IMG/VR virus record: IMGVR_UViG_2597489893_000006
Coordinates: 1-18,357 of that record
Direction: 5' to 3' (one strand)
DNA length: 18,357 nucleotides
DNA from: a virus
Lineage: Duplodnaviria > Heunggongvirae > Uroviricota > Caudoviricetes
Shown here: positions 1-16,800 of the stretch, in pieces
Layout of the letters: each line of letters starts with the position of its first letter
Position numbering within the stretch: the first letter of the stretch is position 1
Translations under genes and position numbers: made by a program
Notes under the pieces: generated by a model
The model's database searches: none
Told to the model about the DNA's origin: nothing
What the model saw: only the letters and a program-made list of their open reading frames with translations

Positions 1-21
1 GGTTTTTTACATCATTGGCCC

Positions 22-459: not shown

Positions 460-464
460 ATGGC

Positions 465-490
465 AAAAAAAAGGCGGCCTAATGGCCGCC
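465..490 (-). terminator. Intrinsic terminator-like hairpin with T8 tract, ending 5 nt upstream of the ref ATG
   Basis: On the minus strand: GGCGGCC-ATTA-GGCCGCC (7-bp GC stem) followed directly by TTTTTTTT, then GCCAT, then ATG. Confidence 0.5.
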
Positions 491-550
491 AATGATGTCA
501 AGGAGTGAAGTAATGGCAACGTCTTCGTAGTTGACAAAAACTGCGGCTCA

Positions 551-574
551 ATTATAGCAATCAATTAGAGCAAT
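551..574 (-). promoter_or_regulatory. C1-operator-like 17-mer overlapping a perfect -10 TATAAT reading toward ref
   Basis: Positions 558-574 match the reverse complement of the C1 operator consensus ATTGCTCTAATAAATTT at 14/17. Minus-strand TATAAT lies at 551-556 immediately downstream. Confidence 0.45.
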
Positions 575-635
575 TAAAGTTATTTGTTTATCGCGAATCA
601 CATTTTTTCACTTCAGTACCTGTGTACTATACTCC

Positions 636-706
636 TTCTTGATTGATTGAATGCGGAATACAAACCCGCTTTTTTGTGCAGCCTGGCTCCTTGCCAGGCT
701 TTTTTT
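636..706 (+). ncRNA. Candidate small RNA unit (promoter-like -35 TTTTCA / -10 TATACT at 605-633, tandem intrinsic terminators at 652-675 and 680-706)
   Basis: Plus-strand TTTTCA, 17-nt spacer, TATACT. Downstream hairpin AGCCTGGC-TCCTT-GCCAGGCT followed by T7. A weaker GCGG..CCGC hairpin plus T6 sits just upstream. The unit is convergent with the 3' end of the minus-strand ORF 705-1016. Confidence 0.25.
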
Positions 707-1016
707 ATTTCAGCATGGAAGCTGTTAACGCTTTGGACCTTGCTGAACTGATTGAAAGGGCTTTGTCAACGTGCCCCAAAAATTCGCCAAACTCGGCCAT
801 CACTTTGGCAAAACCGCGCCGTGCTTCTTTCTCGGTGGCATTCATCACGAAATGTTCAGCACTACGCATACTTTTGACAGGGAACGCAACGGATATTGAG
901 TCAATATCAGGCATTCTATCGCTCAGCTTTACAGTGACAATGACGGCTGGCGACTGAATATTAGTGCTTACAGACAGCACTACATATTTTCCGTCGATGT
1001 TGAAATCCTTTCTCAC
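705..1016 (-). CDS. Hypothetical protein, 103 aa, immediately downstream of cre (position of P1 cra)
   Basis: Minus-strand ORF co-oriented with cre and ref; GGTGA Shine-Dalgarno-like sequence 2 nt upstream of the ATG. The overlapping plus-strand ORF 643-957 starts with TTG and contains the terminator, so the minus-strand frame is preferred. Confidence 0.45.
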   Translation of the reverse strand: MRKDFNIDGKYVVLSVSTNIQSPAVIVTVKLSDRMPDIDSISVAFPVKSMRSAEHFVMNATEKEARRGFAKVMAEFGEFLGHVDKALSISSARSKALTASMLK

Positions 1017-1032
1017 ATGTCACCATAAATAC

Positions 1033-1049
1033 CAAAGAATTAGAGCAAT
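1033..1049 (-). promoter_or_regulatory. C1-operator-like 17-mer between the cre stop and the downstream ORF
   Basis: caaagaattagagcaat matches the reverse complement of the operator consensus at 13/17, including the TTAGAGCAAT core. Confidence 0.35.
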
Positions 1050-1066
1050 CATTTGCGCGCTAATGG

Positions 1067-2098
1067 CTAATAGCCATCTTCCAGCAGGCGCACCATTGCC
1101 CCTGTTTCACTATCCAGGTTACGGATATAGTTCATGACAATATTTACGTTGGTCCAGCCACCAGCTTGCATGATCTCCGGTATTGAAACTCCGGCGCGGG
1201 CCATATCTCGCGCGGCTCCGACACGGGCACTGTGTCCAGACCAGGCCAGGTACCTCTGGCCAGAGTCATCCTTAGCCCCGAAAATCAATCGGTGAGTTGC
1301 TTCAAAAATCCCTTCCAGGGCGCGAGTTGATAGCTGGCTGGTGGCAGATGGCGCGGCAACACCATTTTTTCTGACACGGCAAAACAAGTAGTTATTCGGA
1401 TCATCAGCCACACCAGAGACAGAAATCCATCGCTCAACCAGTTTAGTTACCCCCAGACTAAGTGCCTTCTCTACACCAGCGGTGCTAACCAGCGTTTTCG
1501 TTCTGCCAATATGGATTAACATTCTCCCACCGTCAGTACGTGAGATATCTTTAACTCTGATCCTAGAAATTTCGGCTATACGTAACAGGGTGTTATAAGC
1601 AATCCCCAGAAATGCCAGATTACGTATATCCTGGCAGCGATCGCTATTTTCCATGAGTGAACGAACCTGGTCGAAATCAGTGCGTTCGAACGCCAGCGCC
1701 TGTTTTGCACGCTCACCGGCATCAACGTTTTCTTTTCGGATCCGTCGCATGACGAGTGAAACAGCATTGCTGTCACTTGGTCGTTGCAGCCCGGACCGAC
1801 GATGAAGCATATTTAGCTGGCCCAAATGTTGCTGGATAGTTTTCACTGCCAGACCGCGCGCCTGAAGATATAGAAGATAATCGCGAACATCTTCAGGTTC
1901 TGCGGGAAACCATTTCCGGTTATTCAACTTGCACCATGCCGCCCATGACCGGCAAACGGACAGAAGCATTTTCCAGGTATGCTCAGAAAACGCCTGGCGA
2001 TCCCTGAACATATCCATCAGGTTCTTGCGAACCTCATCACTCGTTGCATCGACCGGCAATGCAGGCAAATTTTGGTGTACGGTCAGTAAATTGGACAT
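1067..2098 (-). CDS. cre: Cre tyrosine site-specific recombinase
   Basis: 343-aa translation MSNLLTVHQNLPALPVDATSDEVRKNLMDMFRDRQAFSEH... through ...GWTNVNIVMNYIRNLDSETGAMVRLLEDGY is near-identical to P1 Cre as I recall it, including the catalytic Tyr in the MNYIR motif. Canonical loxP lies 435 bp upstream. Confidence 0.97.
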   Translation of the reverse strand: MSNLLTVHQNLPALPVDATSDEVRKNLMDMFRDRQAFSEHTWKMLLSVCRSWAAWCKLNNRKWFPAEPEDVRDYLLYLQARGLAVKTIQQHLGQLNMLHRRSGLQRPSDSNAVSLVMRRIRKENVDAGERAKQALAFERTDFDQVRSLMENSDRCQDIRNLAFLGIAYNTLLRIAEISRIRVKDISRTDGGRMLIHIGRTKTLVSTAGVEKALSLGVTKLVERWISVSGVADDPNNYLFCRVRKNGVAAPSATSQLSTRALEGIFEATHRLIFGAKDDSGQRYLAWSGHSARVGAARDMARAGVSIPEIMQAGGWTNVNIVMNYIRNLDSETGAMVRLLEDGY

Positions 2099-2105
2099 TT
2101 GACAC

Positions 2106-2327
2106 TCAGATAATGGTTTTAAGTAAAGTGTACAGGATCGGCTCTGCCTTTACCTGTTTATGGTTCTCGTCATAGAAACGCCAACGACCGCGACTGCGTT
2201 CTATCTTTTCTTCACCGCGCGATAATGACAGTTGACAACTATCACGATCAAACCCTTTTGCCCGCCAGTAACCACGATTTTTCTCAAGCTCAAGATGAGT
2301 GGACACTTTAGCAGCTGAATATCCCAT
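2106..2327 (-). CDS. Possible small basic protein (73 aa) ending 8 nt upstream of the cre ATG
   Basis: ATG preceded by GAGGTG two nt upstream; stop TGA 8 nt before the cre start, so translational coupling is possible. No recognisable domain. Confidence 0.25.
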   Translation of the reverse strand: MGYSAAKVSTHLELEKNRGYWRAKGFDRDSCQLSLSRGEEKIERSRGRWRFYDENHKQVKAEPILYTLLKTII

Positions 2328-2357
2328 TTTTCACCTCTGATTGATTGGTGGTGCTAA

Positions 2358-2420
2358 GTGCGCTACGCGAAATCTGGAGCACAAACACTGCCAACATTTC
2401 GCAGATTTTACGTAGCGCAA
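2358..2420. repeat. Imperfect 19-bp inverted repeat (dyad symmetry) in the cre upstream region
   Basis: GTGCGCTACGCGAAATCTG at 2358-2376 and CAGATTTTACGTAGCGCAA at 2402-2420 are complementary at 16/19, with a 25-nt spacer. Confidence 0.4.
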
Positions 2421-2422
2421 CC

Positions 2423-2497
2423 TTGATCAAATGATCAAGTGATCACTATTTGACCTGATAAGGTATTGAACTGTATGGATTTACAGGTAAATTGATC
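2423..2497. promoter_or_regulatory. Cluster of four GATC (Dam) sites, including three tandem TGATCA hexamers, between cre and loxP
   Basis: TTGATCAAATGATCAAGTGATCAC at 2423-2446 plus TTGATCATG at 2492-2499. P1 cre transcription is known to be Dam-sensitive. Confidence 0.45.
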
Positions 2498-2516
2498 ATG
2501 TTCAATAACCCTTAAG

Positions 2517-2550
2517 ATAACTTCGTATAATGTATGCTATACGAAGTTAT
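2517..2550. other. loxP: loxP recombination site
   Basis: Exact ATAACTTCGTATA-ATGTATGC-TATACGAAGTTAT: 13-bp inverted repeats flanking the 8-bp asymmetric spacer. Confidence 0.98.
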
Positions 2551-2593
2551 TAGGTCTGAAGAGGAGTTTACGTCCAGCTGCGCATAAAAATCA

Positions 2594-2610
2594 AGAATTA
2601 TTAGAGCAAT
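2594..2610 (-). promoter_or_regulatory. C1 operator (reverse orientation) upstream of coi-c1
   Basis: agaattattagagcaat matches the reverse complement of the operator consensus at 15/17. Confidence 0.6.
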
Positions 2611-2670
2611 AAATTTTGAGAGAAAAATCCCACTCCACCAGCCAAAAACTGGATTGTTTTTCATAGTTGT

Positions 2671-2697
2671 TTGACAATTGCTCTAATAAATTATAGT
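2671..2697 (+). promoter_or_regulatory. Rightward promoter (-35 TTGACA, -10-like TATAGT) with an embedded C1 operator, directed at coi-c1
   Basis: TTGACA at 2671-2676 is followed directly by ATTGCTCTAATAAATTA at 2677-2693 (16/17 to consensus), overlapping TATAGT. Confidence 0.6.
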
Positions 2698-2931
2698 TTT
2701 GCCGCCGTTTCGTAATACAACTTTGGATTCACTATTTAATGTGTCTTCAGCGTTGTAGAGCGGCTCAGAAGGAAATGAGCAAACAGGGAAACCTTATACA
2801 ACGGCATTACAGCTATGCATTGCTCATCTTACACACAGCGCAATGTTGTAGGATTACCCCAGCATGGATCATGGGTGAAACAGTAGGTCAGAGCTTCAGG
2901 CTCTGTGTTGTCAATACAGTGAGGCATAATT

Positions 2932-3141
2932 ATGGCTTTCATTCCACCAACCATCGACGACGTTAGACATTGCTCTAACGCTTTATCTGTAGACCCCGCC
3001 GAAACCGACGCTGCCCGCGCCATTGCTGAACACTACTCAAAGATATCCAATCAGGAGTACCGCATCACCCAAGACGACCTGGATGATCTCACTGACACAA
3101 TCGAATATCTCATGGCCACTAACCAGCCAGACTCACAATAA
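2932..3141 (+). CDS. coi: Coi, C1 inactivator
   Basis: 69-aa ORF immediately upstream of and co-oriented with c1, size and position as in P1; acidic C-terminus. Confidence 0.8.
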   Translation: MAFIPPTIDDVRHCSNALSVDPAETDAARAIAEHYSKISNQEYRITQDDLDDLTDTIEYLMATNQPDSQ

Positions 3142-3157
3142 ATGCACTAATAAATCT
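3141..3157 (+). promoter_or_regulatory. C1-operator-like 17-mer in the coi-c1 intergenic region
   Basis: aatgcactaataaatct matches the consensus at 14/17; sits at the coi stop codon. Confidence 0.45.
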
Positions 3158-3186
3158 ATTATTTTCGTTGGATCCTTCTATAATGG

Positions 3187-3229
3187 TGGCCAACAACTCC
3201 CAGTGTAATCCGCTGTGAGTTGTTGGCCA
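3187..3229 (+). promoter_or_regulatory. Perfect 13-bp inverted repeat (stem-loop) 10 nt upstream of the c1 Shine-Dalgarno
   Basis: TGGCCAACAACTC at 3187-3199 and GAGTTGTTGGCCA at 3217-3229 with a 17-nt loop; no downstream U-tract. Confidence 0.4.
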
Positions 3230-3251
3230 TGTCAATTCTGGAGGAGGATCA

Positions 3252-4103
3252 ATGATAAATTATGTCTACGGCGAACAACTGTACCAGGAGTTCGTCAGCT
3301 TCAGGGATCTCTTTCTAAAAAAAGCTGTTGCACGCGCCCAACACGTTGATGCCGCCAGCGACGGTCGTCCTGTTCGCCCGGTTGTCGTTCTGCCGTTCAA
3401 AGAAACGGACAGCATTCAGGCTGAAATTGATAAATGGACTTTAATGGCGCGGGAACTGGAACAGTACCCAGACCTCAATATCCCAAAGACTATTTTATAT
3501 CCAGTGCCTAACATCCTTCGCGGTGTGCGTAAGGTTACAACTTATCAGACAGAAGCTGTGAACAGCGTCAACATGACCGCTGGCCGCATTATTCATCTGA
3601 TTGATAAGGACATTCGCATCCAGAAAAGCGCGGGGATCAATGAGCACAGTGCGAAATACATAGAGAACCTGGAAGCAACAAAAGAGCTAATGAAGCAGTA
3701 CCCGGAGGATGAAAAATTCCGTATGCGTGTACACGGCTTTAGCGAAACAATGTTGCGCGTCCATTACATTTCCAGTAGCCCTAACTACAATGATGGTAAA
3801 TCAGTTAGTTACCATGTGCCGCTGTGTGGTGTGTTTATCTGCGATGAAACTCTCCGTGATGGAATCATCATCAACGGTGAATTCGAGAAAGCAAAATTTA
3901 GCCTTTATGACTCTATAGAACCGATCATCTGCGACCGCTGGCCGCAGGCAAAAATATATCGCCTGGCAGATATTGAAAATGTAAAAAAACAAATTGCCAT
4001 CACTCGCGAAGAGAAAAAGGTCAAATCAGCCGCATCAGTTACGCGCAGCCGTAAAACTAAGAAGGGGCAGCCAGTAAACAGCAACCCCGAAAGCGCGCAA
4101 TAG
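3252..4103 (+). CDS. c1: C1 repressor of lysis (primary immunity repressor)
   Basis: 283-aa ORF with strong GGAGGAGG Shine-Dalgarno; length, position next to coi and the operator sites fit P1 C1. Confidence 0.93.
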   Translation: MINYVYGEQLYQEFVSFRDLFLKKAVARAQHVDAASDGRPVRPVVVLPFKETDSIQAEIDKWTLMARELEQYPDLNIPKTILYPVPNILRGVRKVTTYQTEAVNSVNMTAGRIIHLIDKDIRIQKSAGINEHSAKYIENLEATKELMKQYPEDEKFRMRVHGFSETMLRVHYISSSPNYNDGKSVSYHVPLCGVFICDETLRDGIIINGEFEKAKFSLYDSIEPIICDRWPQAKIYRLADIENVKKQIAITREEKKVKSAASVTRSRKTKKGQPVNSNPESAQ

Positions 4104-4128
4104 TTTTCCATCCGGCATGGTCAAATTG

Positions 4129-5613
4129 TTATTCATTAAGCCATGCCAGAGCTTCATCAACCTGCGCTTCGTCTTCGACGCTAAGCACTTCATCTTGGGG
4201 AACATAGTTCGCCAACATAGCGAAACAATATGTATCCCAATGGTCCGGTGAGTGCAGGTTGAGTTTTTTCTTCATATCTTCCTTTGACATCACCTTCCAT
4301 TGACCTGCGGAATTTATCCCTACCGGTATCTTTGATGCTTCCTCTATAGTCGCAGCCCCCTTATCAAGCCGCATACGCCCTGATTTTACAGCTTCTGCCG
4401 CCTGAATATTCGCGAAAGCGCGCATATCGAAATAAAGGCTTTTATCTTCACGGCTGTGCATCTTTTTACCCCAGCGGATACGCTGGACGGTAATGCCATA
4501 GCGTTCGTACATTAGATCAGCCGTCGATTTCCCCAAGCCATCGCCATCAATAGCTATGGTTATGTTCGGGAACCGTTCTGGGTTACATTCTGCGAAAATC
4601 TTGGCGGCTAACTGCGTTTCTGTAACGTCTGTGTATTCCAGCATACGATAGTTGATTACACGGCGTTTATTTCGCTGGCCGGACACCATCATGATATTAA
4701 TAACGGACTTATCTCGTCCTGTGCCACCAGCAACGTCAACACATGCAACCCAGCCCCATCCTTTGGCAATCTTGACCTTTCGCCGCGTCGCCCGCTCAAC
4801 CTCATCACGACCAAGAAGAAAGCCATCTTGAGATTTGGGAAATTCACCACGTACTTTGATCATGTACATGGGGTTATCACGACCGCCATACTCCGCAAGT
4901 TTTGCTCGTATAAATTTTGCATCTACAAGCGGAGATTCTTCACTATTCAGTATTATCGCAGTAAACAATCCATCAGGATTTCCCGGGCGAATAGCTAGTC
5001 TGTGGTGTGAATCGTAGAAATAGCCTGAAGGTCGCGTAGGCTGGGAAAGAAGCAGAATACGGTTATCCTTACCGGTCAGCGCACCTGTTATCACACTGAA
5101 TGCTTTATCACTCACACCCGACGCTTCGTCGATGATATACAAGAGATGATCGGCGTGTTCACCAGCCAACGCCTCCTCATTTCCGGGGCGACAGGACTTT
5201 ATCAATATTGTCCAAACACCCTTGCCAGTCACCTCAAAAAAAGACGTTTCTGTAAGAATGAAATACTTCGACAACCACGGGAATCTGCTAACAGCAGTAG
5301 CCCAATTGCTCTTTATGTATTTGAAAATACCATCAAGGACTTGCTGTCTTTTGTTAGCGACCAGAATGACGCGAGCGCCGGGGAAAAACATGATGAAGAG
5401 TATTGCAATGATACTCGTCATATCCGATTTACCAGTACCATGGCCGGAGGTCACACTTGTCCAACTGCCGTCCTGCTGCGTGGACTCAATGATCTCATCC
5501 TGCTGCCAGGTTGGTGTCTTCCCAAACAACACATCAGCGGCCGCAATCCAGTCATAACGATATAGCGCCACAAGCTCGCGCCAACGTGGGTCCGTTACGC
5601 AACTTCTGGCCAT
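4129..5613 (-). CDS. pacB: PacB, terminase large subunit
   Basis: 494-aa ORF with a Walker-A-like SGHGTGKS motif; start overlaps the pacA stop (TAATG); convergent with c1. Confidence 0.9.
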
Positions 5614-6806
5614 TAATCATCATCCCCGTACAGTTTGCGGGTAACTTCTTCGTCTTCCTCCTCGTCTTCGTCCAGATCCTGTTCAAGCCATGCTTCGTTT
5701 GATATGCCTTCCGCATCGACATCACCATAACCACCTGTATCGACGATATCGGCAATTTCTTCTCTACGATGCTCAATCCACAATGCCGCATCAGCGCGGC
5801 GGCTGGCGGCCCGTTCTCGCGCGATTTTATCCAGATCTTCAAGTGATGGAGCGCCAGATGCTGTTTGGTTTTCCTCATCATCGGTATTGGTCTTAGGAGC
5901 ACGCAGATCGGCTTTGATTTGCTCCAGCATCAGGGGCGGCACTTTTCCTCCATGCGCCTCGATGAATTCAGCCGCTTCCAGCACTGACCAGTTATTTTCA
6001 CGCTTTCGTTCGTATGCCAGCTTAACAATGCCAGCTTGCCCCATAGACAAAGCGTGCTTTTCCGCCTCCCGGCTTTCTTTTCGATAGTTATTCCGGATGC
6101 TGTAAATGGTGTTGATCAGGCTGCTTATCTGCGCGGAACAGCTGTTTAGCATGCTCGCGATACGGTATTCAGGCGGAGTACCTTCATCATCGTCTTTTTG
6201 CTGATCGCGCATTTCCTGCACCAGGCGAATACACGTATCCCTGGCGTTCTCCAGCATAAGGAGATGAGAAAGAGACTTTTCCAGAAGAGTGGTTTCCAGA
6301 ACATCGGCCCCGGACCGACGCAACATAGCGCGCGCGGCCTTCCGCGCTTCAACGTTATCTATCAGGTAATCGCCAGCTTCGAATTCAAAGCGTTCACCAT
6401 CATCATCCAGGGTGTCGCGTTCCAGGCGATCACGTAAGGTCCGGTGGGCGCGGGTGATCACGTCATGATCATCTGAACGATCATTTATGCGCTTATTTTG
6501 GCGCTTCGCATTATCGACTGCGGCACTGACAACGGCATTAACTCTTTGTTTTTCATCCATTTCAGCCACAACGTGATCACCTGCACGTTGATCATTAGCG
6601 TGATCAATGATCATGCTTTTTAGTGGTTTCCTGACAGGCTTATTTGGCTTACGGCTGTCCGCTGTTCCGGTGTCTTCTTTGAATGCACGGAGATAACGAC
6701 GTGCGGTGTTTGGGTTGAGATTAAACTCGGCGGCATATTGTGCGATGGTGTAACCACCATCTCGCGCCAGGCGAGCAAAATTCTTCTTGTGATCGTCCCA
6801 GGTCAC
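5613..6806 (-). CDS. pacA: PacA, terminase small subunit / pac-recognition protein
   Basis: 397-aa ORF with an acidic C-terminal tail; contains the GATC-hexamer pac site within its coding sequence, as in P1. Confidence 0.9.
6427..6614. other. pac: pac packaging site: two clusters of TGATCA(G/C)-type hexamers flanking an ~90-bp region
   Basis: Cluster 1 at 6427-6484 (cGATCAc, TGATCAC, TGATCAT, cGATCAt) and cluster 2 at 6574-6613 (TGATCAC, TGATCAT, TGATCAA, TGATCAT); eight GATC sites in under 190 bp inside pacA. Confidence 0.8.
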
Positions 6807-6892
6807 TTATGCTTCCTTTCGTATAAAACTCTTTTTGACGCGAGGGTAACGAAAGTCACATGTCAAAAGGCCCGGAACGGGCAAGCAATCAA

Positions 6893-7345
6893 TCAGATAC
6901 GTGCGGATGTGGCATTACCGTAATGACGGTGCTGACGGACCACCTTATTGAAAAATTGACGCGCCATTACCCAAGGCTGGTGCTCCCGGCGTTCCTTTTC
7001 GTCCTGCGTCATATAGAGTTCGTTCTGGAGTTTTTCATCAAACCGGCGCGGAGCGCGACTGCGGCGAAAGAATTCAGGATTCAGAGAGTGGATCTGAAAT
7101 CTACGTGGGCGTGTACTGTCATCAATCAAAACAGACGAATACTTAGACACAGCGATAGCCTTTAAGCGCAGATAAACATCGCGCTTATCGACATCCAGAT
7201 GCGGGTATTCCTTTTCAAGAATTGCTGCGAGTTCTTTCGCTGATAGAAGAGATTTAGTGCGGATCATGTAATCCGCAATCTCGTACGATGTTATTCGTGA
7301 GTGATTTATTTCCATGAAGTGGCGTCCCTGCCAGTTAAGTAACAT
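6893..7345 (-). CDS. lpa: Lpa, late promoter activator
   Basis: 150-aa ORF between pacA and a C1-operator-containing promoter, matching P1 order; AGGTGA Shine-Dalgarno 4 nt upstream of the ATG. Confidence 0.75.
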   Translation of the reverse strand: MLLNWQGRHFMEINHSRITSYEIADYMIRTKSLLSAKELAAILEKEYPHLDVDKRDVYLRLKAIAVSKYSSVLIDDSTRPRRFQIHSLNPEFFRRSRAPRRFDEKLQNELYMTQDEKERREHQPWVMARQFFNKVVRQHRHYGNATSARI

Positions 7346-7415
7346 CCTGTCACCTACTGATTAGCCCATGTCAACTAATCAACGTCGAATATAATACCCT
7401 CGATTAAAGAAATAG

Positions 7416-7432
7416 CAATACATTAGAGCAAT
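7416..7432 (-). promoter_or_regulatory. C1 operator within the lpa promoter region
   Basis: caatacattagagcaat matches the reverse complement of the consensus at 14/17. On the minus strand it is followed by TTGCTA, 17 nt, TATTAT, then the lpa ribosome-binding site. Confidence 0.55.
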
Positions 7433-7433
7433 T

Positions 7434-8477
7434 TTATCTAACACTCGACGAATGACTTGTGATAGCGCCAACTCCAAGCGCGTAATCAAAGAACAATCGT
7501 TGATGCATCGCCAGCCTACCGTGCGTCTTCTCCCAATTATCGCGGTCACGCTCAATATCACGCTGGCATGACTGGCACAGAGGAATAGCATAAATGTCAT
7601 GCGCGCATAATCGACTATGACGAACTATATAAGGCGTAATGTGAGCGCCAGCTCCCGCAGCTCCACAGCCACAGCATGGACGGGAAGCCACAAAGTCCAT
7701 GTACTCGGGCAATTTTAGCGATTGAAGTTTTGGTATTTTGAAATGCGCCATACCTGGGTCGGAGTCAACATCCACAGGGCATACTTTTGCACGCATCGGC
7801 GCGGCGCGTTCTTCCATCATCTGAACATATGCTGTAGCGCGATCGTCATACGGGCGAATATCCGCCTCTTTCAGAGGTCCGCTATCCTGCGGAATAGCCT
7901 TCATCTTATTTATTGATATGCGGCAGACTTCTTCCGGCATCAGGTGCATCATGTTGCGCATGAAAGCCCACCAGCACAGCTCCTGAATACTTAAATCATG
8001 GCTATTTGAAAGGCCCATTTCCTGACGGGCGACATCCAGTATCCAGTTAACGCGATTATTGTGCAGCGTTTCTTTCAGCTCATTAAAACCACGCATCCGA
8101 TAATGGTGATCGTGATGCCAGCACAACAACACCGCGCTATTGTCTCGTTCAGCGTGGACAATATGGTTGTCACACCAACTACGATCTGCGGCCTGGCATT
8201 GCCCCTCTTTCCTGCGCAACCACGCCACCAGCGCGTCAATTCCACCAATACGGCGAAACAGTTCATCGCTGTTAAAAAACGGCTGCAACGCCTCATTTGT
8301 TGCCATGGTTTGCTCGGTAACAACGAGGCCGTCTTCCATGTGCTCGATTAACTCACGCGGCACCGGCTCCATAATAAATTTACGGCCAGCCTCCACCAGC
8401 TTTCTGACCTCCTGATCCACTTTGAACGTGGCGAGGCCAAGCTCTTTCTGTACAAAGGGAGTAATTACGGCTTTCAC
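7434..8477 (-). CDS. Cys/His-rich hypothetical protein (347 aa), possibly zinc-binding or HNH-like; occupies the post-doc position
   Basis: GTG start preceded by AAGGTG. Motifs CDNH...CWHHDHH...HNN and CCGCG...H...H..C.H...C..C. Co-oriented in the phd-doc operon; no confident family assignment. Confidence 0.6.
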
Positions 8478-8504
8478 ATCACACCTTTAATCACTGATTG
8501 GGCT

Positions 8505-8684
8505 TTATCTGCTGCCCGGCATTCTCTGTTTAAGCACAACCATTTCCTGACGGCATAACACAGCAATAGCAGTCCTGGCTCCAATTTGCTTACCAACCAG
8601 GTATTGCTTTACCTCGCGGCGACTCACGCCATCAAGAAGCATCTTTAACGCTTCACGGGACAATTTGTTGTATTTGCGTGCCAT
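8505..8684 (-). CDS. Small helix-turn-helix-like protein (59 aa), translationally coupled to doc
   Basis: ATG 4 nt after the doc stop, with GGAG 7 nt upstream. Sequence LSREALKMLLDGVSRREVKQYLVGKQIGARTAIAVL resembles a resolvase/invertase-type HTH. Confidence 0.5.
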   Translation of the reverse strand: MARKYNKLSREALKMLLDGVSRREVKQYLVGKQIGARTAIAVLCRQEMVVLKQRMPGSR

Positions 8685-8688
8685 TAAT

Positions 8689-9069
8689 CTACTCCGCAGA
8701 ACCATACAATCTACGTAACGTGTCGGCGACAGAAGATACAGATATCTCGCCAGTCGCAGCGCCTACAGTAAGGTCTGCCAGTTCAGGTGAATCAAATACC
8801 TGCACCCCGTTACGGCGTAGAAATAGCAGCGCGCTGTTTAGCGCGGTACGCTTATTGGCATCATTGAATATATGCCCTCTCGCTGTAGCCACCAGGTAGG
8901 TGGCGGAGACTTCGAAAAGGTCGGTGATCTCTTCGTAGGCAACTCTGGCCTGAACTCTCCCGATAATGGCCTCTGCCCTACCCGGATCTGACATTCCCGG
9001 CAGGCCGCCGTAGCGGCTTATATTCGCATCATGAAGCGCAATAAGTTCTTCCGGTGATATATGCCTCAT
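8689..9069 (-). CDS. doc: Doc toxin (Fic-family kinase)
   Basis: 126-aa translation with the Fic motif HIFNDANKR; start overlaps the phd stop (TAATG). Confidence 0.95.
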
Positions 9070-9290
9070 TATCGGTTAACCAGTTCCTTGTTGGTGGAGT
9101 CCAGGGTGTCAAACAGGGATGCAAATTCAGCATCCAGCGCCGCTTTTTTGTAGGCTTCGAAAGTAGCCTTGCTGACAATTACTGCTGGCTCACGACCTCT
9201 GCGGGTGATTTCAACCTCTTCCCCGGCTTCAACATTGTTGAGCACTTCAGAAAGGTTGCCGCGCGCGGTACGGAAGTTAATGGATTGCAT
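9069..9290 (-). CDS. phd: Phd antitoxin
   Basis: 73 aa from ATG at 9290 ([49 protein letters not shown]...), recognisable as P1 Phd. The ORF track's longer form starts at an upstream GTG. Confidence 0.95.
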
Positions 9291-9293
9291 AAA

Positions 9294-9330
9294 CACCTCG
9301 TGTACTCGTTATGTGTACACAATTATAAAC
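9294..9330 (-). promoter_or_regulatory. phd-doc promoter/operator: perfect TATAAT, palindrome TGTGTACACA and half-site GAGTACAC, then GAGGTG Shine-Dalgarno
   Basis: Minus strand reads TTTATAATTGTGTACACATAACGAGTACACGAGGTGTTTATG. Phd is known to autoregulate through palindromic operator sites in this promoter. Confidence 0.6.
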
Positions 9331-9466: not shown

Positions 9467-10501
9467 ATGAAAATGACAAGTATTCAACAACGTGCAGAGC
9501 TTCATCGTCAAATCTGGCAAATTGCTAACGATGTCAGGGGTTCGGTCGATGGATGGGATTTTAAGCAATACGTTCTGGGCGCACTTTTCTACCGTTTTAT
9601 CAGCGAAAATTTTTCCAGTTATATTGAAGCCGGTGATGACAGTATCTGTTATGCGAAACTGGATGACAGCGTAATTACTGATGACATTAAAGACGATGCC
9701 ATCAAAACTAAAGGCTACTTCATCTACCCCAGTCAGCTTTTCTGCAACGTAGCTGCGAAAGCAAATACCAATGACAGACTGAACGCAGATTTAAACAGCA
9801 TCTTCGTTGCTATCGAAAGTTCTGCTTACGGCTACCCTTCAGAAGCAGACATCAAAGGTTTGTTTGCTGATTTCGATACCACCAGTAACCGCCTGGGTAA
9901 CACCGTTAAAGATAAAAATGCCCGCCTGGCTGCGGTTCTGAAAGGGGTTGAAGGGTTAAAACTTGGTGACTTCAACGAACATCAGATTGACCTGTTCGGT
10001 GATGCCTATGAGTTCCTGATTTCTAACTATGCGGCAAATGCCGGTAAGTCAGGCGGTGAGTTCTTTACACCGCAGCACGTCTCCAAGCTGATTGCACAAC
10101 TGGCTATGCACGGGCAGACCAACGTTAACAAAATCTACGACCCGGCAGCGGGTTCCGGCTCACTGTTGTTGCAGGCTAAAAAGCAGTTTGATAACCATAT
10201 CATCGAAGAAGGCTTTTTTGGTCAGGAAATCAACCATACAACCTATAACCTGGCACGTATGAACATGTTTTTGCACAACATCAACTACGACAAGTTTGAT
10301 ATCAAGCTGGGTAATACACTGACTGAGCCACACTTCAGAGATGAAAAACCGTTTGATGCCATCGTTTCTAACCCGCCGTATTCGGTGAAATGGATTGGCA
10401 GCGATGACCCGACGCTGATTAACGATGAACGTTTTGCCCCGGCTGGCGTCCTGGCCCCCAAATCCAAAGCTGACTTTGCGTTTGTACTACATGCGCTGAA
10501 C
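9467..10501 (+). pseudogene. hsdM: hsdM (Type IC methyltransferase), 5' fragment of 345 codons, truncated by IS903
   Basis: Translation carries the AdoMet motif [10 protein letters not shown] and the N6-adenine motif NPPY. The reading frame runs into the IS903 inverted repeat and stops after 4 IS-encoded codons (GFVE-stop). Confidence 0.9.
10493..10501. repeat. IS903 target-site duplication, left copy (GCGCTGAAC)
   Basis: Identical 9-mer found at 11559-11567 directly flanking the other inverted repeat. Confidence 0.9.
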
Positions 10502-11558
10502 GGCTTTGTTGAATAAATCAGATTTCGGGTAAGTCTCCCCCGTAGCGGGTTGTGTTTTCAGGCAATACGCACGCTTTCAGGCATACCTGCTTTCGTCATT
10601 TTGTTCAGCGCTCGTACCAGGGCCATAGCCTCTGCAACCTGACCATCGTAGTCACGCAGTGTCAGTGAACCCCCGAACAGCTGTTTTACCCGGTACATCG
10701 CCGTTTCCGCTATCGAGCGACGGTTGTAATCTGTTGTCCATTTCCACCGCGCATTACTCCCGGTCATTCGCTGATTAGCCACTGCACGGTTACGGTCTGC
10801 ATATTCACCGGGCCAGTAACCCGCACCTTTTCGGGGTGGGATAAGCGCGCTGATTTTCTTACGCCGCAGTTCATCGTGACATAGCCGGGTATCGTAAGCG
10901 CCATCGGCGGCGGCTGACCTGATTTTCCGGTGGGTTTGCCGGATTAACCCGGGGAAGGCCTCTGAGTCCGTAACGTTGTTCAGCGACAGGTCAGCGCAGA
11001 TGATTTCATGTGTTTTACTGTCAACGGCGAGATGCAGCTTACGCCAGATACGGCGGCGTTCCTGGCCATGCTTTTTGACTTTCCACTCGCCTTCACCGAA
11101 GACCTTCAGCCCGGTGGAATCAATTACCAGGTGTGCGATTTCACCCCGGGTGGGCGTTTTGAAACTGACATTAACCGACTTTGCCCGCCTGCTGACACAG
11201 CTGTAATCCGGGCAGCGTAGCGGAACGTTCATCAGAGAAAAAATGGAATCAATAAAGCCCTGCGCAGCGCGCAGGGTCAGCCTGAATACGCGTTTAATGA
11301 CCAGCACAGTCGTGATGGCAAGGTCAGAATAGCGCTGAGGTCTGCCTCGTGAAGAAGGTGTTGCTGACTCATACCAGGCCTGAATAGCTTCATCATCCAG
11401 CCAGAAAGTTATGGAGCCACGGTTGATGAGGGCTTTATTGTAGGTGGGCCAGTTGGTGATTTTGAACTTTTGCTTTGCCACGGAACGGTCTGCGTTGTCG
11501 GGAAGATACGTGATCTGATCCTTCAACTCAGCAAAAGTTCGATTTATTCAACAAAGCC
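10502..11558 (-). mobile_element. IS903 (IS5 family, IS903 group), complete 1057-bp copy
   Basis: Perfect 18-bp terminal inverted repeats GGCTTTGTTGAATAAATC (10502-10519) and GATTTATTCAACAAAGCC (11541-11558); length 1057 bp; 9-bp direct duplication on both sides; transposase ORF inside. Confidence 0.95.
10558..11481 (-). CDS. IS903 transposase (DDE), 307 aa from a GTG start
   Basis: Translation ...AKQKFKITNWPTYNKALINRGSITFWLDDEAIQAWYE... matches IS903/IS102 transposase as I recall it. The ORF track's 322-aa form begins at an upstream TTG. Confidence 0.88.
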   Translation of the reverse strand: MAKQKFKITNWPTYNKALINRGSITFWLDDEAIQAWYESATPSSRGRPQRYSDLAITTVLVIKRVFRLTLRAAQGFIDSIFSLMNVPLRCPDYSCVSRRAKSVNVSFKTPTRGEIAHLVIDSTGLKVFGEGEWKVKKHGQERRRIWRKLHLAVDSKTHEIICADLSLNNVTDSEAFPGLIRQTHRKIRSAAADGAYDTRLCHDELRRKKISALIPPRKGAGYWPGEYADRNRAVANQRMTGSNARWKWTTDYNRRSIAETAMYRVKQLFGGSLTLRDYDGQVAEAMALVRALNKMTKAGMPESVRIA

Positions 11559-11567
11559 GCGCTGAAC
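11559..11567. repeat. IS903 target-site duplication, right copy (GCGCTGAAC)
   Basis: Identical to 10493-10501. Confidence 0.9.
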
Positions 11568-12095
11568 TATCTTTCGGCCAAAGGTCGTGCTGCGATTGTC
11601 TGCTTCCCGGGTATTTTTTACCGTGGCGGCGCGGAGCAGAAAATCCGTCAGTATCTGGTCGATAATAACTATGTCGAAACCGTGATTTCACTGGCACCGA
11701 ACCTGTTCTTTGGCACCACTATTGCTGTAAACATTCTGGTGCTGTCTAAACATAAAACGGATACCAAAGTTCAGTTTATTGATGCCAGCGAACTGTTCAA
11801 AAAAGAAACCAACAACAATATCCTGACCGATGCCCATATCGAACAGATTATGCAGGTATTTGCCAGCAAGGAAGATGTTGCTCATCTGGCGAAATCTGTT
11901 GCGTTTGAGACTGTTGTCGCGAATGACTATAACCTGTCGGTGAGCAGCTATGTGGAAGCGAAAGATAACCGCGAAATTATCGATATCGGTGAGCTGAATG
12001 CAGAGCTGAAAACCACGGTCAGCAAAATCGACCAGTTGCGTAAAGATATTGATGCAATTGTGGCTGAAATTGAAGGCTGCGAGGTGCAGAAATGA
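11559..12095 (+). pseudogene. hsdM: hsdM 3' fragment (C-terminal 175 codons plus the duplicated ALN codons)
   Basis: Frame continues from the duplicated GCG CTG AAC into [49 protein letters not shown]... Removing the IS and one duplication copy restores a 520-codon ORF (the 1066-bp insertion is a +1 frame shift, which matches the observed frames). Confidence 0.9.
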
Positions 12096-13297
12096 GCGAG
12101 ATGAGTTATCTGGAAAAATTGCTGGATGGGGTTGAGGTTGAGTGGAAGACACTTGGGCAAACTTGCAAAATTGAAACAGGAAAGCTTAATGCGAATGCGG
12201 CTGTTGATGATGGAGAGTATATGTTCTTCACGACAGCCAAAGAGACAAGCAAAATTGATAAATTCCGCTGGGATACAGAGGCATTGCTGATTGCAGGCAA
12301 TGCGAATGTTGGTGAGGTGAAGCATTACATCGGCAAGTTTGAGGCTTATCAGCGCACCTATGTTCTGACAAATTTCGACGAAAATGTAAGTGTTAGATTT
12401 TTGTATTTTGTGCTTAGCCATAGCCTGAAGAAATATCTCGAGGAAAGAACAAATAGCGCGGCAATGACATATATCGTGCTATCAACCTTAGAGAATTTCC
12501 CTATCCCCATCCCCTGCCCGGATAATCCGGAAAAATCCCTTGCCATCCAGTCTGAAATCGTTCGGATTCTGGATAAATTTACTGCACTTACCGCTGAGCT
12601 TACCGCTGAGCTTAACATGCGTAAAAAACAGTACAACTACTATCGCGACCAGTTGTTGAGTTTTAAAGATGGTGAGGTTGAGTGGAAGACTTTGGGGGAA
12701 ATTGGAGATTTTACATATGGATATGCAGCCAAAGCCATGGATTCAGGAGATGCCCGTTTCGTGAGAATTACTGACATAAATAAAGACGGGAAGCTATCGA
12801 AAGAAAACCCAATGTACGTTGAATTAAATGAGGAAAATGAGAAATATACCTTAGACAAAAATGATTTACTCATGGCAAGAACTGGGGCAACCTTTGGTAA
12901 AACAATGATTTTTGAAGAAGATTATCCAGCAGTATACGCTGGTTTTTTAATAAAGTTGAACCTAAATAAAACGATTATTAATGCCAAATATTACTGGCAC
13001 TTTGCACAAAGTGATTTTTTTTGGGAACAGGCTAATAAATTAGTATCTGGTGGTGGGCAACCACAGTTTAATGCTAATGCACTGAAACAAGTCAGAGTAC
13101 CTATTCCATACCCATCTCACCCTCAAAAATCTTTAGACGAACAGGGGCGTATTGTGGATATTCTGGATAAGTTTGATGCAATCGCAGCTTCCATCACCGA
13201 AGGTCTTCCGCGTGAAATCGAGTTGCGCCAGAAACAATACGAATACTACCGTGATTTACTGTTCAGTTTCCCGAAACCTGAAACTGCCAGTAATTAA
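12092..13297 (+). CDS. hsdS: HsdS, Type IC specificity subunit
   Basis: 401 aa; ATG overlaps the hsdM stop (ATGA). Conserved N-terminal, central and C-terminal regions with internal duplication (VEWKTLG twice; ILDKF twice) and a central TAELTAEL repeat; two variable target-recognition domains. Confidence 0.9.
12587..12610 (+). repeat. Two tandem copies of the 12-bp repeat CTTACCGCTGAG (encoding TAEL-TAEL) in the hsdS central conserved region
   Basis: Directly visible tandem repeat. In the EcoR124I/EcoR124II family the copy number (2 versus 3) sets the spacer length of the recognition sequence. Confidence 0.85.
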
Positions 13298-13418
13298 TTG
13301 ATCATTGCTACCGATCGGACCACCTTAACACCCGGTCAGTATATAGACTATTTTTTACGCGCCGGAAGTCACCATTACCCCCCTTCCGGCCCTTGCCAGA
13401 CGGCACAAAGGATGCGCT

Positions 13419-16400
13419 ATGACTCATCAGACACACACCATTGCTGAATCCAATAACTTTATCGTTCTTGATAAGTACATCAAAGCTGAGCCAACAGGCG
13501 ACAGCTACCAGAGCGAATCGGACCTGGAACGTGAACTGATTCAGGACCTGCAAAATCAGGGTTATGAATTTATTTCCGTAAAATCACAGTCGGCAATGCT
13601 GTCCAATGTTCGGGAACAGCTTCAGAGCCTCAATGGTGTGATGTTTAATGACAGCGAGTGGCGGCGCTTCACGGAGCAGTATCTGGACAACCCCAGCGAT
13701 GGTATTCTGGATAAAACCCGTAAAATCCATATCGACTATATCTGCGACTTTATTTTTGATGACGGGCGACTTGAGAACATCTATTTGATAGATAAAAAGA
13801 ATCTCATGCGCAATAAGGTGCAGATTATCCAGCAGTTTGAACAGACGGGTTCTCATGCTAACCGTTATGACGTCACGATCCTGGTTAATGGTTTACCGCT
13901 GGTGCAAATCGAACTAAAAAAACGCGGGGTGGCGATTCGTGAGGCTTTCAACCAGATACATCGTTACAGTAAAGAGAGTTTTAACAGCGAAAATTCCCTG
14001 TTTAAGTATCTGCAACTGTTTGTCATTTCTAACGGCACCGATACCCGTTATTTTGCCAACACGACAAAGCGCGATAAAAACAGTTTTGACTTCACCATGA
14101 ATTGGGCGAAATCAGACAACACGCTGATTAAAGACCTCAAAGACTTTACCGCTACCTTTTTCCAGAAACATACTCTGCTGAATGTTCTGGTGAACTACAG
14201 CGTTTTTGACAGTAGTCAGACGCTACTGGTGATGCGACCGTACCAGATTGCCGCCACCGAGCGCATTCTGTGGAAAATTAAGAGTTCCTTTACAGCGAAG
14301 AACTGGTCAAAACCGGAAAGCGGTGGGTATATCTGGCACACTACCGGTTCTGGTAAAACCCTCACCAGCTTTAAAGCCGCGCGTCTGGCAACAGAGCTGG
14401 ACTTTATTGATAAAGTCTTCTTTGTGGTCGACAGGAAAGACCTCGATTACCAGACCATGAAGGAATATCAGCGTTTTTCGCCAGACAGCGTCAACGGCTC
14501 GGAAAATACCGCAGGCCTTAAACGAAATCTGGATAAGGACGATAACAAAATTATCGTCACTACTATTCAGAAACTCAATAACCTGATGAAAGCAGAAAGC
14601 GACCTGCCTGTATATAATCAGCAAGTGGTGTTTATATTTGATGAATGCCACCGCAGCCAGTTTGGAGAAGCGCAGAAAAACCTGAAGAAGAAATTCAAAC
14701 GCTATTATCAGTTTGGTTTTACCGGCACACCTATTTTCCCGGAAAACGCCTTAGGCTCAGAAACGACCGCCAGCGTATTTGGTCGTGAATTGCATTCGTA
14801 TGTAATTACCGATGCGATTCGTGATGAAAAAGTGCTCAAATTCAAGGTGGACTACAACGATGTGCGGCCACAGTTTAAGTCTTTAGAGACAGAAACTGAC
14901 GAGAAAAAACTAAGTGCGGCTGAAAATCAGCAGGCGTTTCTTCATCCCATGCGTATACAGGAAATTACGCAATATATTCTGAATAACTTCCGCCAGAAGA
15001 CGCACCGTACTTTCCCTGGCGCAAAAGGTTTTAATGCTATGTTGGCAGTGAGCAGCGTGGATGCTGCAAAAGCCTATTACGCGGCGTTTAAACGGTTACA
15101 AGAGGAAGCCGCTAATAAATCTGCAACTTATAAACCGCTGCGTGTTGCGACAATCTTCTCCTTTGCCGCTAATGAAGAACAAAATGCCATTGGTGAAATT
15201 TCCGATGAAACTTTTGATACCAGCGCAATGGACAGCAGTGCTAAAGAGTTTCTTGACGCTGCAATTCGTGAGTATAACAGCTATTTTAAAACTAACTTCA
15301 GCACCGACGGTAACGGTTTTCAGAACTACTATCGCGATTTAGCCCAACGGGTTAAAAATCAGGATATCGATCTGTTAATTGTCGTTGGGATGTTTTTAAC
15401 CGGCTTCGACGCTCCAACATTGAACACGCTATTCGTCGATAAAAACTTGCGTTTTCACGGCCTGATGCAGGCATTTTCCCGCACCAACCGCATTTATAAC
15501 GCCACTAAAACCTTCGGTAACATTGTCACTTTTCGGGATCTGGAACGCTCAACCATTGATGCCATAACGCTGTTTGGTGATAAAAATACCAAAAATGTGG
15601 TGTTAGAAAAGAGTTATGCAGAGTATATGGAAGGTTTTACTGATGCTGCCACCGGTGAAGCCAAACGCGGCTTTATGGCAGTAGTTTCAGAACTGGAACA
15701 ACGGTTCCCTGACCCTGCCAGTATTGAAAGTGAAAAAGAGAAGAAAGACTTCGTTAAACTGTTTGGCGAATACCTGCGTGCCGAGAACATCCTGCAAAAC
15801 TATGATGAATTTGCCACGCTAAAAGCCCTGCAACAAATCGATCTTAGCGATCCTGTTGCGGTAGAAAAATTCAAAGCAGAACATTATGTGGATGATGAAA
15901 AGTTCGCTGAATTGCAAACAATTCGTCTCCCTGCTGATCGCAAGATTCAGGATTATCGTTCTGCCTATAACGATATTCGCGACTGGCAGCGCCGTGAGAA
16001 AGAAGCTGAGAAAAAAGAGAAATCAACCACTGACTGGGATGACGTGGTTTTTGAGGTCGATTTGCTGAAGTCTCAGGAAATAAACCTGGATTATATCCTT
16101 GGACTGATTTTCGAACACAACAGACAAAATAAAGGCAAGGGCGAAATGATCGAAGAGGTCAAACGCTTAATTCGTTCAAGCCTGGGGAACCGGGCGAAAG
16201 AGGGCCTGGTGGTCGATTTTATTCAGCAAACGAACCTGGATGATTTACCAGACAAAGCCAGTATCATTGAGGCATTCTTTACGTTTGCTCAACGCGAACA
16301 GCAACGTGAAGCAGAAGCATTGATAAAAGAAGAAAATCTCAATGAAGATGCAGCAAAACGCTATATTCGCACGTCTTTAAAACGCGAATACGCCACCGAA

Positions 16401-16535
16401 AATGGCACAGAATTAAACGAAACATTACCAAAACTTAGTCCGTTGAATCCGCAATATAAAACGAAAAAACAGGCAGTTTTCCAGAAAATCGTCTCGTTTA
16501 TTGAGAAGTTTAAAGGCGTAGGCGGAAAAATATAG
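13419..16535 (+). CDS. hsdR: HsdR, Type IC restriction endonuclease/translocase subunit
   Basis: 1038 aa with an N-terminal PD-(D/E)xK-like nuclease motif (D...IELKK), Walker A TGSGKT and a DECH box ([10 protein letters not shown]); length equals EcoR124I HsdR. Confidence 0.93.
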
Positions 16536-16783: not shown

Positions 16784-16800
16784 AGATTTATTAGAACAAT
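16784..16800 (-). promoter_or_regulatory. C1-operator-like 17-mer abutting the stop codon of the HAD-like gene
   Basis: agatttattagaacaat matches the reverse complement of the consensus at 15/17. It shares the extended context AAAAATCAAGA with the operator at 2594-2610. Confidence 0.5.

Follow-up and report, generated by a model that had tools for sequence, protein, structure and literature searches.

Two separable genes downstream of phd-doc in a P1-like phage-plasmid: pdcB, a backbone gene for a probable pseudo-nuclease, and pdcA, a probable accessory rider of the addiction cassette

Do the two genes that follow phd-doc in P1-like phage-plasmids take part in addiction, and is the larger of them the HNH endonuclease that its database name announces? 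These genes, pdcA and pdcB, have been labelled 'function unknown' since 2004. Among phages P1 is a workhorse, and phage-plasmids of its type often carry resistance genes. The window studied here, which is the whole stretch of 18,357 nucleotides that was analysed, is by sequence comparison a P1-like phage-plasmid: in this region it shares 97-99% nucleotide identity with P1, P7, SJ46, RCS47 and other Punavirus genomes, in which the two ORFs are annotated as pdcA and pdcB (named Fdc and Upf95.7 in P7). A preliminary description of this DNA had equated the ORFs with the post-doc genes of P1 and had called the latter functionally uncharacterised, and both statements are borne out. Both genes were already catalogued, and what follows refines the picture of them modestly and describes no new system.

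All features discussed below lie on the minus strand. The gene phd (9069-9296), assigned to the Phd/YefM antitoxins from the ORF list, Pfam and the P1 annotation, is followed by doc (8689-9069), which encodes the Fic/Doc toxin, by pdcA (8505-8684) and by pdcB (7434-8477), whose GTG start is preceded by AAAGGTG. The C1 operator Olpa (ATTGCTCTAATGTATTG, 7416-7432; transferred by offset from the P1 annotation) directly adjoins the stop codon of pdcB and overlaps the -35 element of Plpa (7418..7391). Downstream come the conserved neighbour lpa (6893-7345), which encodes the late promoter activator, and pacA (5613-6806). The curated P1 annotation is free of promoters from Pphd to the end of pdcB and places Olpa and Plpa right after the pdcB stop. 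Our own scan recovered Plpa. From doc to the end of pdcB it detected neither a promoter nor a convincing terminator, and as far as lpa it yielded no terminator that was credible. A terminator-like site inside doc (8845-8830) was put down to chance, given its poor T tract and a count equal to that in shuffled sequences, and the Rfam search of the whole window gave no matches. As no promoter or convincing terminator was found from doc to the end of pdcB, co-transcription of pdcA and pdcB with phd-doc is plausible in this element. The two genes had been described as lying inside the phd-doc operon; this holds as a statement about transcription in P1-type elements, but not as one about a functional unit, since the genes are separable.

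The start of pdcA points to coupling with doc. The toxin gene ends in TAG at 8689-8691, and a spacer of 4 nt (TTAA on the plus strand, 8685-8688) leads to an ATG (8684-8682) from which the ORF runs to 8505 and encodes 59 aa (MARKYNKLSREALKMLLDGVSRREVKQYLVGKQIGARTAIAVLCRQEMVVLKQRMPGSR). A GGAG Shine-Dalgarno motif (8692-8695) is located 7 nt upstream of this ATG, within the last codons at the doc 3' end (GCGGAGTAGATTAATGGCA). The original P1 annotation starts pdcA at an upstream ATG at 8705 (66 aa) that lacks a Shine-Dalgarno sequence, and the NCBI entries named 'PdcA protein' are 59 aa long. This ORF, 4 nt past the doc stop and with its own GGAG, had been noticed beforehand and is confirmed on the minus strand; the accompanying proposal that it is probably co-translated with doc agrees with the position of the GGAG inside doc and the short gap, which fit translational coupling. 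We infer that PdcA is made by termination-reinitiation after doc. Frameshifted pdcA variants occur in public assemblies, and the alternative frame ends in ATGTGA, overlapping the GTG of pdcB.

PdcA itself is an orphan. It had no Pfam match even at E ≤ 10 and no NCBIfam or PADLOC family, its PHROG (3345) is listed as of unknown function, and the search of PDB sequences returned only noise. The sole weak profile match, to a transposase N-terminal domain (TIGR01765), has an E-value of 0.03-0.04 and falls far below the cut-off of that model. Every homolog recovered among 5.8 billion proteins is at least 75% identical, originates from a phd-doc-pdcA cassette and is named PdcA. AlphaFold2 (AF2) predicts, at a pLDDT of 82, a bundle of three helices (residues 2-17, 22-31 and 36-54). 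A structure search of BFVD gave nothing below E 0.2, with fold matches that were generic, and no helix-turn-helix (HTH) family profile of Pfam or NCBIfam matched. PdcA is very basic, with an isoelectric point of 11. It is probably an accessory, nucleic-acid-binding protein, and a regulatory link to the phd-doc cassette is conceivable.

The pN/pS ratio of pdcA is 0.31-0.35, compared with 0.23 for pdcB and ~0.1 for phd, doc and lpa, which makes the constraint on pdcA ~3-fold weaker than that on phd and doc; these estimates come from very similar sequences, in a first sample picked by PdcA identity and a later one picked by Doc. In the Doc-selected loci, 14 synonymous and 17 non-synonymous substitutions were counted in pdcA, against a neutral expectation of ~22% and 78% (binomial p 0.004). 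The 59-aa ORF is intact in 75 of the 80 loci and free of stops or indels in 79; a read-through of the type seen in phage D6, where the stop codon is lost and reading continues, occurs in four. The depletion of non-synonymous changes and the intact ORF in this sample argue for pdcA being a translated gene under moderate constraint. The purifying selection on both genes, their annotated counterparts in P1 and its relatives, and the DUF968 match of PdcB described below place both ORFs far outside what chance would give.

PdcB (347 aa) belongs to the DUF968/YdfU family. Its residues 161-337 cover the whole model of Pfam DUF968 (PF06147) at E 6e-50 and 170 bits (gathering cut-off 27.8), and the protein matches PHROG 96, named 'HNH endonuclease', at E 1.6e-127. 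With a limit of E ≤ 1e-3, an exhaustive HMMER search recovered 132 representatives, which for the most part are homologous over the full length and 22-39% identical. Five fusion homologs (P0136, P0148, P0178, P0179 and P0230), in which the PdcB N-terminus is joined to portal, tail-tip or tail-fibre domains, were set aside because they are most likely assembly chimeras. There is no NCBIfam family for PdcB, the PADLOC defence models matched neither PdcA nor PdcB, and the PDB sequences yielded no match to PdcB or to the family profile. Pfam models of the HNH clan other than DUF968 did not match PdcB either, while canonical family members also match HNHc_6.

In the AF2 model of PdcB, built on an alignment of 43 sequences (pLDDT 85.8), an N-terminal domain is connected by a low-confidence linker (~190-250) to a C-terminal module. 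The N-terminal domain ends in a predicted beta-beta-alpha unit (strands 106-111 and 114-119, helix 120-129), and a second one lies in the C-terminal module (strands 280-284 and 297-301, helix 302-319), so that the model contains the beta-beta-alpha core fold of the His-Me finger/HNH superfamily. From the alignment and the model, the N-terminal zinc-type module (residues 92-130) maps to 8088-8204, and the C-terminal DUF968 His-Me-fold module (residues 251-340) to 7458-7727. The nearest solved folds of the C-terminal module are P1 Ref and YbcO, which are its top structural matches, and in hhalign comparisons of the family profile with Ref, residues 87-146 of Ref align to PdcB 259-319 (E 2.5e-5 and 1e-5). 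This agrees with the placement of DUF968 and DUF1364 in group 7 of the His-Me fingers (PMC5714182). The AlphaFold check proposed for both proteins thus recovered the HNH/His-Me fold in the C-terminal part of PdcB; for PdcA it went no further than the three-helix model with its generic matches.

Two Cys/His clusters had been described in the 347-aa protein and were found as described: C119-W-H-H-D-H-H125 and C268-C-G-C-G272 ... H279 ... H287 ... C291-x-H293 ... C301-x-x-C304. Family-wide, the N-terminal module follows the ligand pattern C94 ... C/H102 ... C119-W-x-H/C122-D-N ('LCWHHDN'), and Cys and His replace each other at positions 102 and 122, as zinc ligands typically do. Because no conserved histidine is present on its strand 1, this module looks structural throughout the family. 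We also considered an internal duplication between the two modules; the topology is suggestive, and the similarity is not significant (E 0.06, probability 0.9%). The isoelectric point is 6.5 for the whole protein, 5.9 for the N-terminal domain and 8.3 for the C-terminal module. Such a mildly acidic character is unusual for a DNA binder, so that PdcB may as plausibly bind a protein as DNA.

The C-terminal module has lost the active site of its family. The DUF968 consensus, QPCxxCG...D[PA]HH.IGHGxGGMGxKAHD....PLC[RH]xxHxxLH, combines a colicin-like HH...HxxxH site with a CxxC...CxxC/H zinc knuckle, and its counterpart in PdcB reads RPCCGCG ... TPYI...CAHD...CQSCQRDIE. The general-base histidine at the end of strand 1 is absent, DPHH of the family and SLHH of Ref being aligned to T-P-Y283-I284, where Y283 and I284 occupy the places of the strand histidines. 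The HxxxH metal ligands of the core helix are absent as well, since C[RH]xxHxxLH aligns to C301-Q-S-C-Q305-R-D-I-E309 and the helix histidines correspond to Q305 and E309. Seven residues of the loop between the strands are deleted. The knuckle cysteines C268, C271, C301 and C304, a predicted zinc site, are kept in all lineages, and H293-D294, P299 and Q305 are conserved as well. This degenerate site is found in every P1-like homolog and in two plasmid lineages that are more distant (P0120 and P0121). All 38 of the other members whose C-terminal module can be recognised have the canonical site, and all the degenerate ones are carried by P1/D6-like plasmids. Y283 and E309 cannot be conserved substitutes because the former is Phe in Salmonella variants and the latter is Ala in most P1-like homologs; H287 is replaced by Asn or Ser. 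The preliminary description had regarded the clusters as metal-binding or HNH-like. This stands in so far as both modules appear to be zinc-type beta-beta-alpha units, the C-terminal one with the HNH/His-Me fold, but PdcB lacks the catalytic histidines, which casts doubt on an HNH nuclease activity. The loss of these residues does not prove inactivity: in PacI, a tyrosine stands in for the catalytic histidine (PMC5714182), and by analogy PdcB may have kept some activity. The conserved H293-D294, Q305 and an acidic residue at position 307 could form a non-canonical site.

Comparison of PdcB with homologs of 65-70% identity gave saturated synonymous sites, a pN of ~0.18-0.2 and a dN/dS of ~0.07-0.15 in every domain. 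As this includes the degenerate module, PdcB is not decaying, and by these estimates all its domains are under strong purifying selection. In a lambdoid Serratia prophage, a canonical DUF968 member is located between rusA and the Q antiterminator, which fits the view of the family as nin-region recombination nucleases (PMC5714182; PMC4118853). Of the two genes, surveys by CRISPRi knock-down and deletion covered pdcB, and found it to be non-essential for lytic growth (PMC10695390), and a recent P1vir transcriptome mentions it only as transiently raised at 10 min in a delta-hfq host.

The genomic neighbourhoods separate the two genes. In Klebsiella, E. coli and Salmonella, P1-like plasmids of ~90 kb encode a PdcB of 65-71% identity in the block pdcB-lpa-pacA-pacB-c1; upstream of it, phd, doc and pdcA are absent and unrelated small genes are found instead. 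These small ORFs were compared with PdcA as candidate diverged versions and proved unrelated. A further lineage (L095), with a PdcB only 38% identical, shows the same order, pdcB-lpa...pacA-pacB-c1, again without phd-doc-pdcA. Conversely, phage D6 carries phd-doc-pdcA (97.8% nucleotide identity) elsewhere in its genome, adjoining isaA and cre; the homology reaches as far as the stop codon of pdcA, beyond which lies a strong intrinsic terminator. In an IncF conjugative plasmid, hsdS-hsdM-phd-doc-pdcA is followed by only codons 1-93 of pdcB and then by unrelated sequence, with IS5 ~0.85 kb further downstream; pdcA is intact there, which may reflect mere closeness to doc. Another locus (L010) is 97-99% identical to the window in phd, doc and pdcA, compared with 81% for PdcB and 72% for Lpa, and has a recombination breakpoint inside pdcB (pS 0.09-0.25 in the 5' part versus 0.9 in the 3' part). 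Finally, in another D6-like group (locus L104 and ~30 PLSDB plasmids), phd-doc is directly followed by a hairpin and a convergent gene, without pdcA.

PLSDB as a whole contains 1245 plasmids with a match to phd-doc, 1137 with a match to pdcA (1131 of these essentially full length) and 1094 with a match to pdcB, only 665 of which reach at least 80% coverage; ~91% of the plasmids with this phd-doc also carry pdcA. Co-occurrence with phd-doc is therefore not obligate for pdcB, which exists without phd-doc and is truncated where phd-doc persists, nor for pdcA, which is absent from the L104 type. These linkage patterns assign pdcA to the mobile phd-doc cassette, in which it is optional, and pdcB to the lpa/pac backbone. 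The operon position had been taken to suggest a role in addiction control; for pdcB this does not hold, as the gene lies beside lpa-pacAB in elements that lack phd-doc and is truncated in IncF plasmids that retain phd-doc-pdcA.

Could PdcB be an active HNH/His-Me endonuclease with a non-canonical site, made up of Tyr283, as in PacI, and of H293/D294, Q305 and D307/E309? It could then be, for example, a Ref-like RecA-dependent nuclease, or a branch-specific one that serves P1 recombination or removes branches ahead of packaging. RefSeq and PHROG 96 do name it an HNH endonuclease. The His-Me fold with Ref and YbcO as top structural matches, the canonical relatives with a full HNH site beside rusA, the strong conservation of a module in which H293-D294 is invariant or nearly so, the adjoining pac genes and the Tyr-for-His precedent (PMC5714182) speak for such an enzyme. 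However, the four histidines of HH...HxxxH are replaced, every one of them, in each P1/D6-like lineage, and the candidate substitutes vary in their turn (Tyr283 to Phe in Salmonella variants, E309 to Ala in most P1-like homologs, H287 to Asn or Ser). The deletion of the seven-residue inter-strand loop, the lack of any Pfam HNH-clan match beyond DUF968 in a family whose canonical members also match HNHc_6, and the lytic growth without phenotype after knock-down (PMC10695390) point in the same direction, and we consider an active nuclease unlikely. As for pdcA, it could be a decaying or functionless ORF that rides with doc, perhaps what remains of the N-terminal HTH of some transposase or recombinase. 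Its confinement to the cassette with homologs all at least 75% identical, the weak TIGR01765 match, the frameshifted and truncated database variants and the D6 variant that reads on speak for this. The well-placed Shine-Dalgarno sequence, the confident and compact three-helix model, the excess of synonymous changes over the neutral expectation (14 to 17 instead of ~22% to 78%, p 0.004) and the 79 of 80 Doc-selected loci without stops or indels make this more improbable still than an active PdcB.

At the other extreme, PdcA, and possibly PdcB, would be a functional third part of phd-doc, with PdcA acting as an HTH regulator of Pphd or as a modulator of Doc. The Shine-Dalgarno sequence within doc, the 4-nt gap, the uninterrupted stretch from doc to pdcB in this element and the purifying selection on pdcA would be expected of such a component, as would the movement of phd-doc-pdcA as a unit at 97-99% identity across the divergent backbones of D6, L010 and IncF, and the presence of pdcA in ~91% of PLSDB plasmids with this phd-doc. 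For pdcB, this reading is refuted by linkage. For pdcA, it is opposed by the ~30 plasmids and the L104 locus in which phd-doc runs directly into a hairpin and a convergent gene, by the lack of an HTH profile match and the generic fold matches, and by a constraint ~3-fold weaker than on phd and doc. Moreover, in the classical 1993 experiments of Lehnherr et al., phd and doc alone reportedly suffice for addiction. We judge a third component to be about as unlikely as a PdcB nuclease.

The explanation that we prefer, and hold to be slightly more probable than not, is that pdcA and pdcB are two independent genes, co-transcribed in P1-type elements, of which the first encodes an accessory rider and the second a pseudo-nuclease. 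In this explanation, pdcB is a backbone gene of P1-like phage-plasmids, always directly upstream of lpa-pacA-pacB, and derives from the DUF968/YdfU proteins of lambdoid nin regions, which are sited between rusA and Q and have a complete HH...HxxxH site. PdcB keeps the family plan (N-terminal domain with a zinc beta-beta-alpha module, flexible linker, C-terminal zinc-knuckle His-Me module), whereas in every P1/D6-like lineage the general-base histidine, its neighbour and both helix ligands have been replaced and the seven-residue loop has been lost. It is tempting to suggest that PdcB is a zinc-stabilised, non-catalytic binder, a pseudo-nuclease that would hold DNA or a protein partner and probably still has a link with recombination, with replication or with the early-to-late transition. 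PdcB would then be no canonical HNH endonuclease and would not control the toxin-antitoxin pair; for lytic growth it is dispensable. The product of pdcA, probably translated by coupling to doc and moving with phd-doc between backbones while being optional for the cassette, may ride on the addiction operon as an accessory protein that binds nucleic acids, rather than being a core toxin-antitoxin component. What the analyses show is the identity of the genes, the domain plan and fold, the lost active site and the patterns of selection and linkage; the roles in binding and regulation are inferred. One can also combine the two ideas and imagine a dead Ref/YbcO-like module turned regulator in PdcB, next to a Doc-coupled nucleic-acid-binding third component, PdcA, that tunes the expression or activity of the cassette. 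PdcB might then compete with Ref on RecA filaments or guide it, or might gate the early-to-late switch at Olpa/Plpa-lpa. This combination seems to us the least probable of all the readings considered.

What this analysis adds is that pdcA and pdcB form separate modules, that PdcB has a fold like that of Ref and YbcO, and that its catalytic histidines have been lost throughout the lineage while selection has continued. The name 'HNH endonuclease' given to PdcB by RefSeq and PHROGs is probably wrong at the level of the active site, which matters for annotation pipelines and for the inference of nuclease or defence functions. Since pdcB goes with the lpa/pac backbone and pdcA with the mobile cassette, the two should be studied separately.

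Several known systems offer points of comparison. Some toxin-antitoxin operons, such as paaR-paaA-parE and omega-epsilon-zeta, have three genes, the additional one being a regulator or an accessory gene. Like their third genes, pdcA is small, possibly DNA-binding, and co-transcribed and coupled with a type II pair, but it lies downstream of the toxin instead of upstream and is optional for the cassette. The autoregulation of phd-doc is attributed to Phd-Doc itself, and PdcA showed no homology to known toxin-antitoxin regulators in Pfam, NCBIfam, PHROG or PADLOC.

For PdcB, the closest parallel is DUF968/YdfU of the E. coli Qin prophage, in His-Me group 7 together with DUF1364/YbcO (PDB 3g27). 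The two share full-length homology (22-39%), the same two modules and a position just upstream of the gene that activates late functions, which is Q in lambdoid phages and Lpa in P1. They differ in their neighbours, rusA and Q for canonical DUF968 genes and lpa and pac for pdcB, and in the active site: canonical proteins have D[PA]HH ... HxxLH and a GHGxGGMG loop, whereas P1-type PdcB has [TS]P[YF][ILM] ... QxxxE/A and no loop. Canonical DUF968 genes share the nin-region niche of lambda NinG/Rap and RusA. NinG shows a weak similarity to PdcB in the His-Me motif that is not significant as homology (E 0.002 over 21 columns), and no significant homology was found between NinB/Orf and the PdcB N-terminal domain (E 0.48).

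A further comparison is with P1 Ref (PDB 3plw, PF16786), a RecA-dependent HNH nuclease, which is encoded by the same element (22-564 of the window). PF16786 gave no match to PdcB at E ≤ 0.1, against 7e-30 for the Ref of the window itself, and the alignment of the two proteins spans the zinc knuckle, the strand histidine pair and the LPLC-helix. The N-terminus of Ref, 76 aa long, is basic, disordered and needed for activity (PMC4330346), unlike the N-terminal domain of PdcB, which is acidic and predicted to be folded. Ref keeps H112/H113 and H133/H134/H136, histidines that PdcB lacks. The P1 lineage offers a natural pair within one genome, Ref being active as a His-Me nuclease and PdcB being its conserved but degenerate relative, with which to ask what this fold does after the loss of catalysis.

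The P1-like locus L010 carries a mosaic pdcB gene (5001-6041 of that locus). Its 5' part differs little from the window, with a pS of 0.09-0.25, and the adjoining phd, doc and pdcA genes are likewise similar to it, whereas its 3' part is saturated against the window, with a pS of 0.9. This difference implies a recombination breakpoint within the L010 pdcB gene. A truncated pdcB occurs in the IncF conjugative plasmid NZ_CP051665.1, in which positions 1-5900 hold a P1-derived hsdS-hsdM-phd-doc-pdcA block ending in codons 1-93 of pdcB; about 0.85 kb further downstream, beyond the point of truncation, there is a copy of IS5. Matches to pdcB are only partial in about 430 PLSDB plasmids.

A distant DUF968 homolog of PdcB (38% identity; P0121 in our representative library) is found in the D6-like plasmids, at 6001-6996 in locus L104 and at around 80-82 kb in D6 (MF356679.1), and likewise lacks the catalytic His. 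It is embedded in a lambdoid nin-like block together with an Ea22-like gene, a DUF551 gene and a NinI-like phosphatase gene, and the humD-phd-doc genes of these plasmids are located about 5.5 kb downstream of the homolog. In these elements the cassette ends at GC-rich hairpins (GAAGCCCGC...GCGGGCTT), which lie directly 3' of pdcA in D6 (around 3800-3850 of locus L012) and directly 3' of doc in L104 (around 12095-12130). Since a T tract comes after the hairpin in D6, this one is a terminator. In the window, there is no terminator between the pdcB stop codon and the C1 operator Olpa (7416-7432), which abuts this stop codon and overlaps the Plpa promoter region (7391-7418). We infer that C1 bound to Olpa may be a roadblock keeping read-through from the phd-doc promoter Pphd out of lpa in lysogens.

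Several PdcA variants in the databases are frameshifted into an alternative frame (window 8474-8596, minus strand), whose stop (ATGTGA) overlaps the GTG start of pdcB by 4 nt. The candidate ORF read from these entries, which may be real alleles or assembly errors, would thus be coupled to pdcB via the stop/start overlap. In five library proteins (P0136, P0148, P0178, P0179 and P0230), the N-terminal part of PdcB appears fused to a domain of the portal, the tail tip (J) or the tail fibre; we set these aside, as they are most likely chimeric assemblies and not genuine fusions.

On the other side of the cassette, phd adjoins a divergent type I R-M locus (9467-16535) composed of hsdM, hsdS (12092-13297) and hsdR (13419-16535). 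The methylase gene hsdM (9467-12095, plus strand) is split by an IS insertion into two pieces (9467-10516 and 11682-12095), and the IS encodes a 322-aa DDE transposase on the minus strand (10558-11526; PF13737/PF01609). The best plasmid matches to the hsd region come as two pieces, with about 1 kb absent. This element probably has an inactive or altered R-M system. Downstream of hsdR, two minus-strand ORFs encode a 168-aa protein with a PNKP-type phosphatase domain (16800-17306) and a 325-aa protein without any Pfam match (17379-18356), the latter ORF reaching the window edge.

The hsd-beside-phd arrangement is common to 22 of the 80 IMG/VR pdcA loci and is also present in IncF plasmids. In P1, by contrast, the corresponding position beside phd is occupied by humD. 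The arrangement calls to mind the EcoDXXI hsd plasmid mentioned in a note to the P1 annotation.
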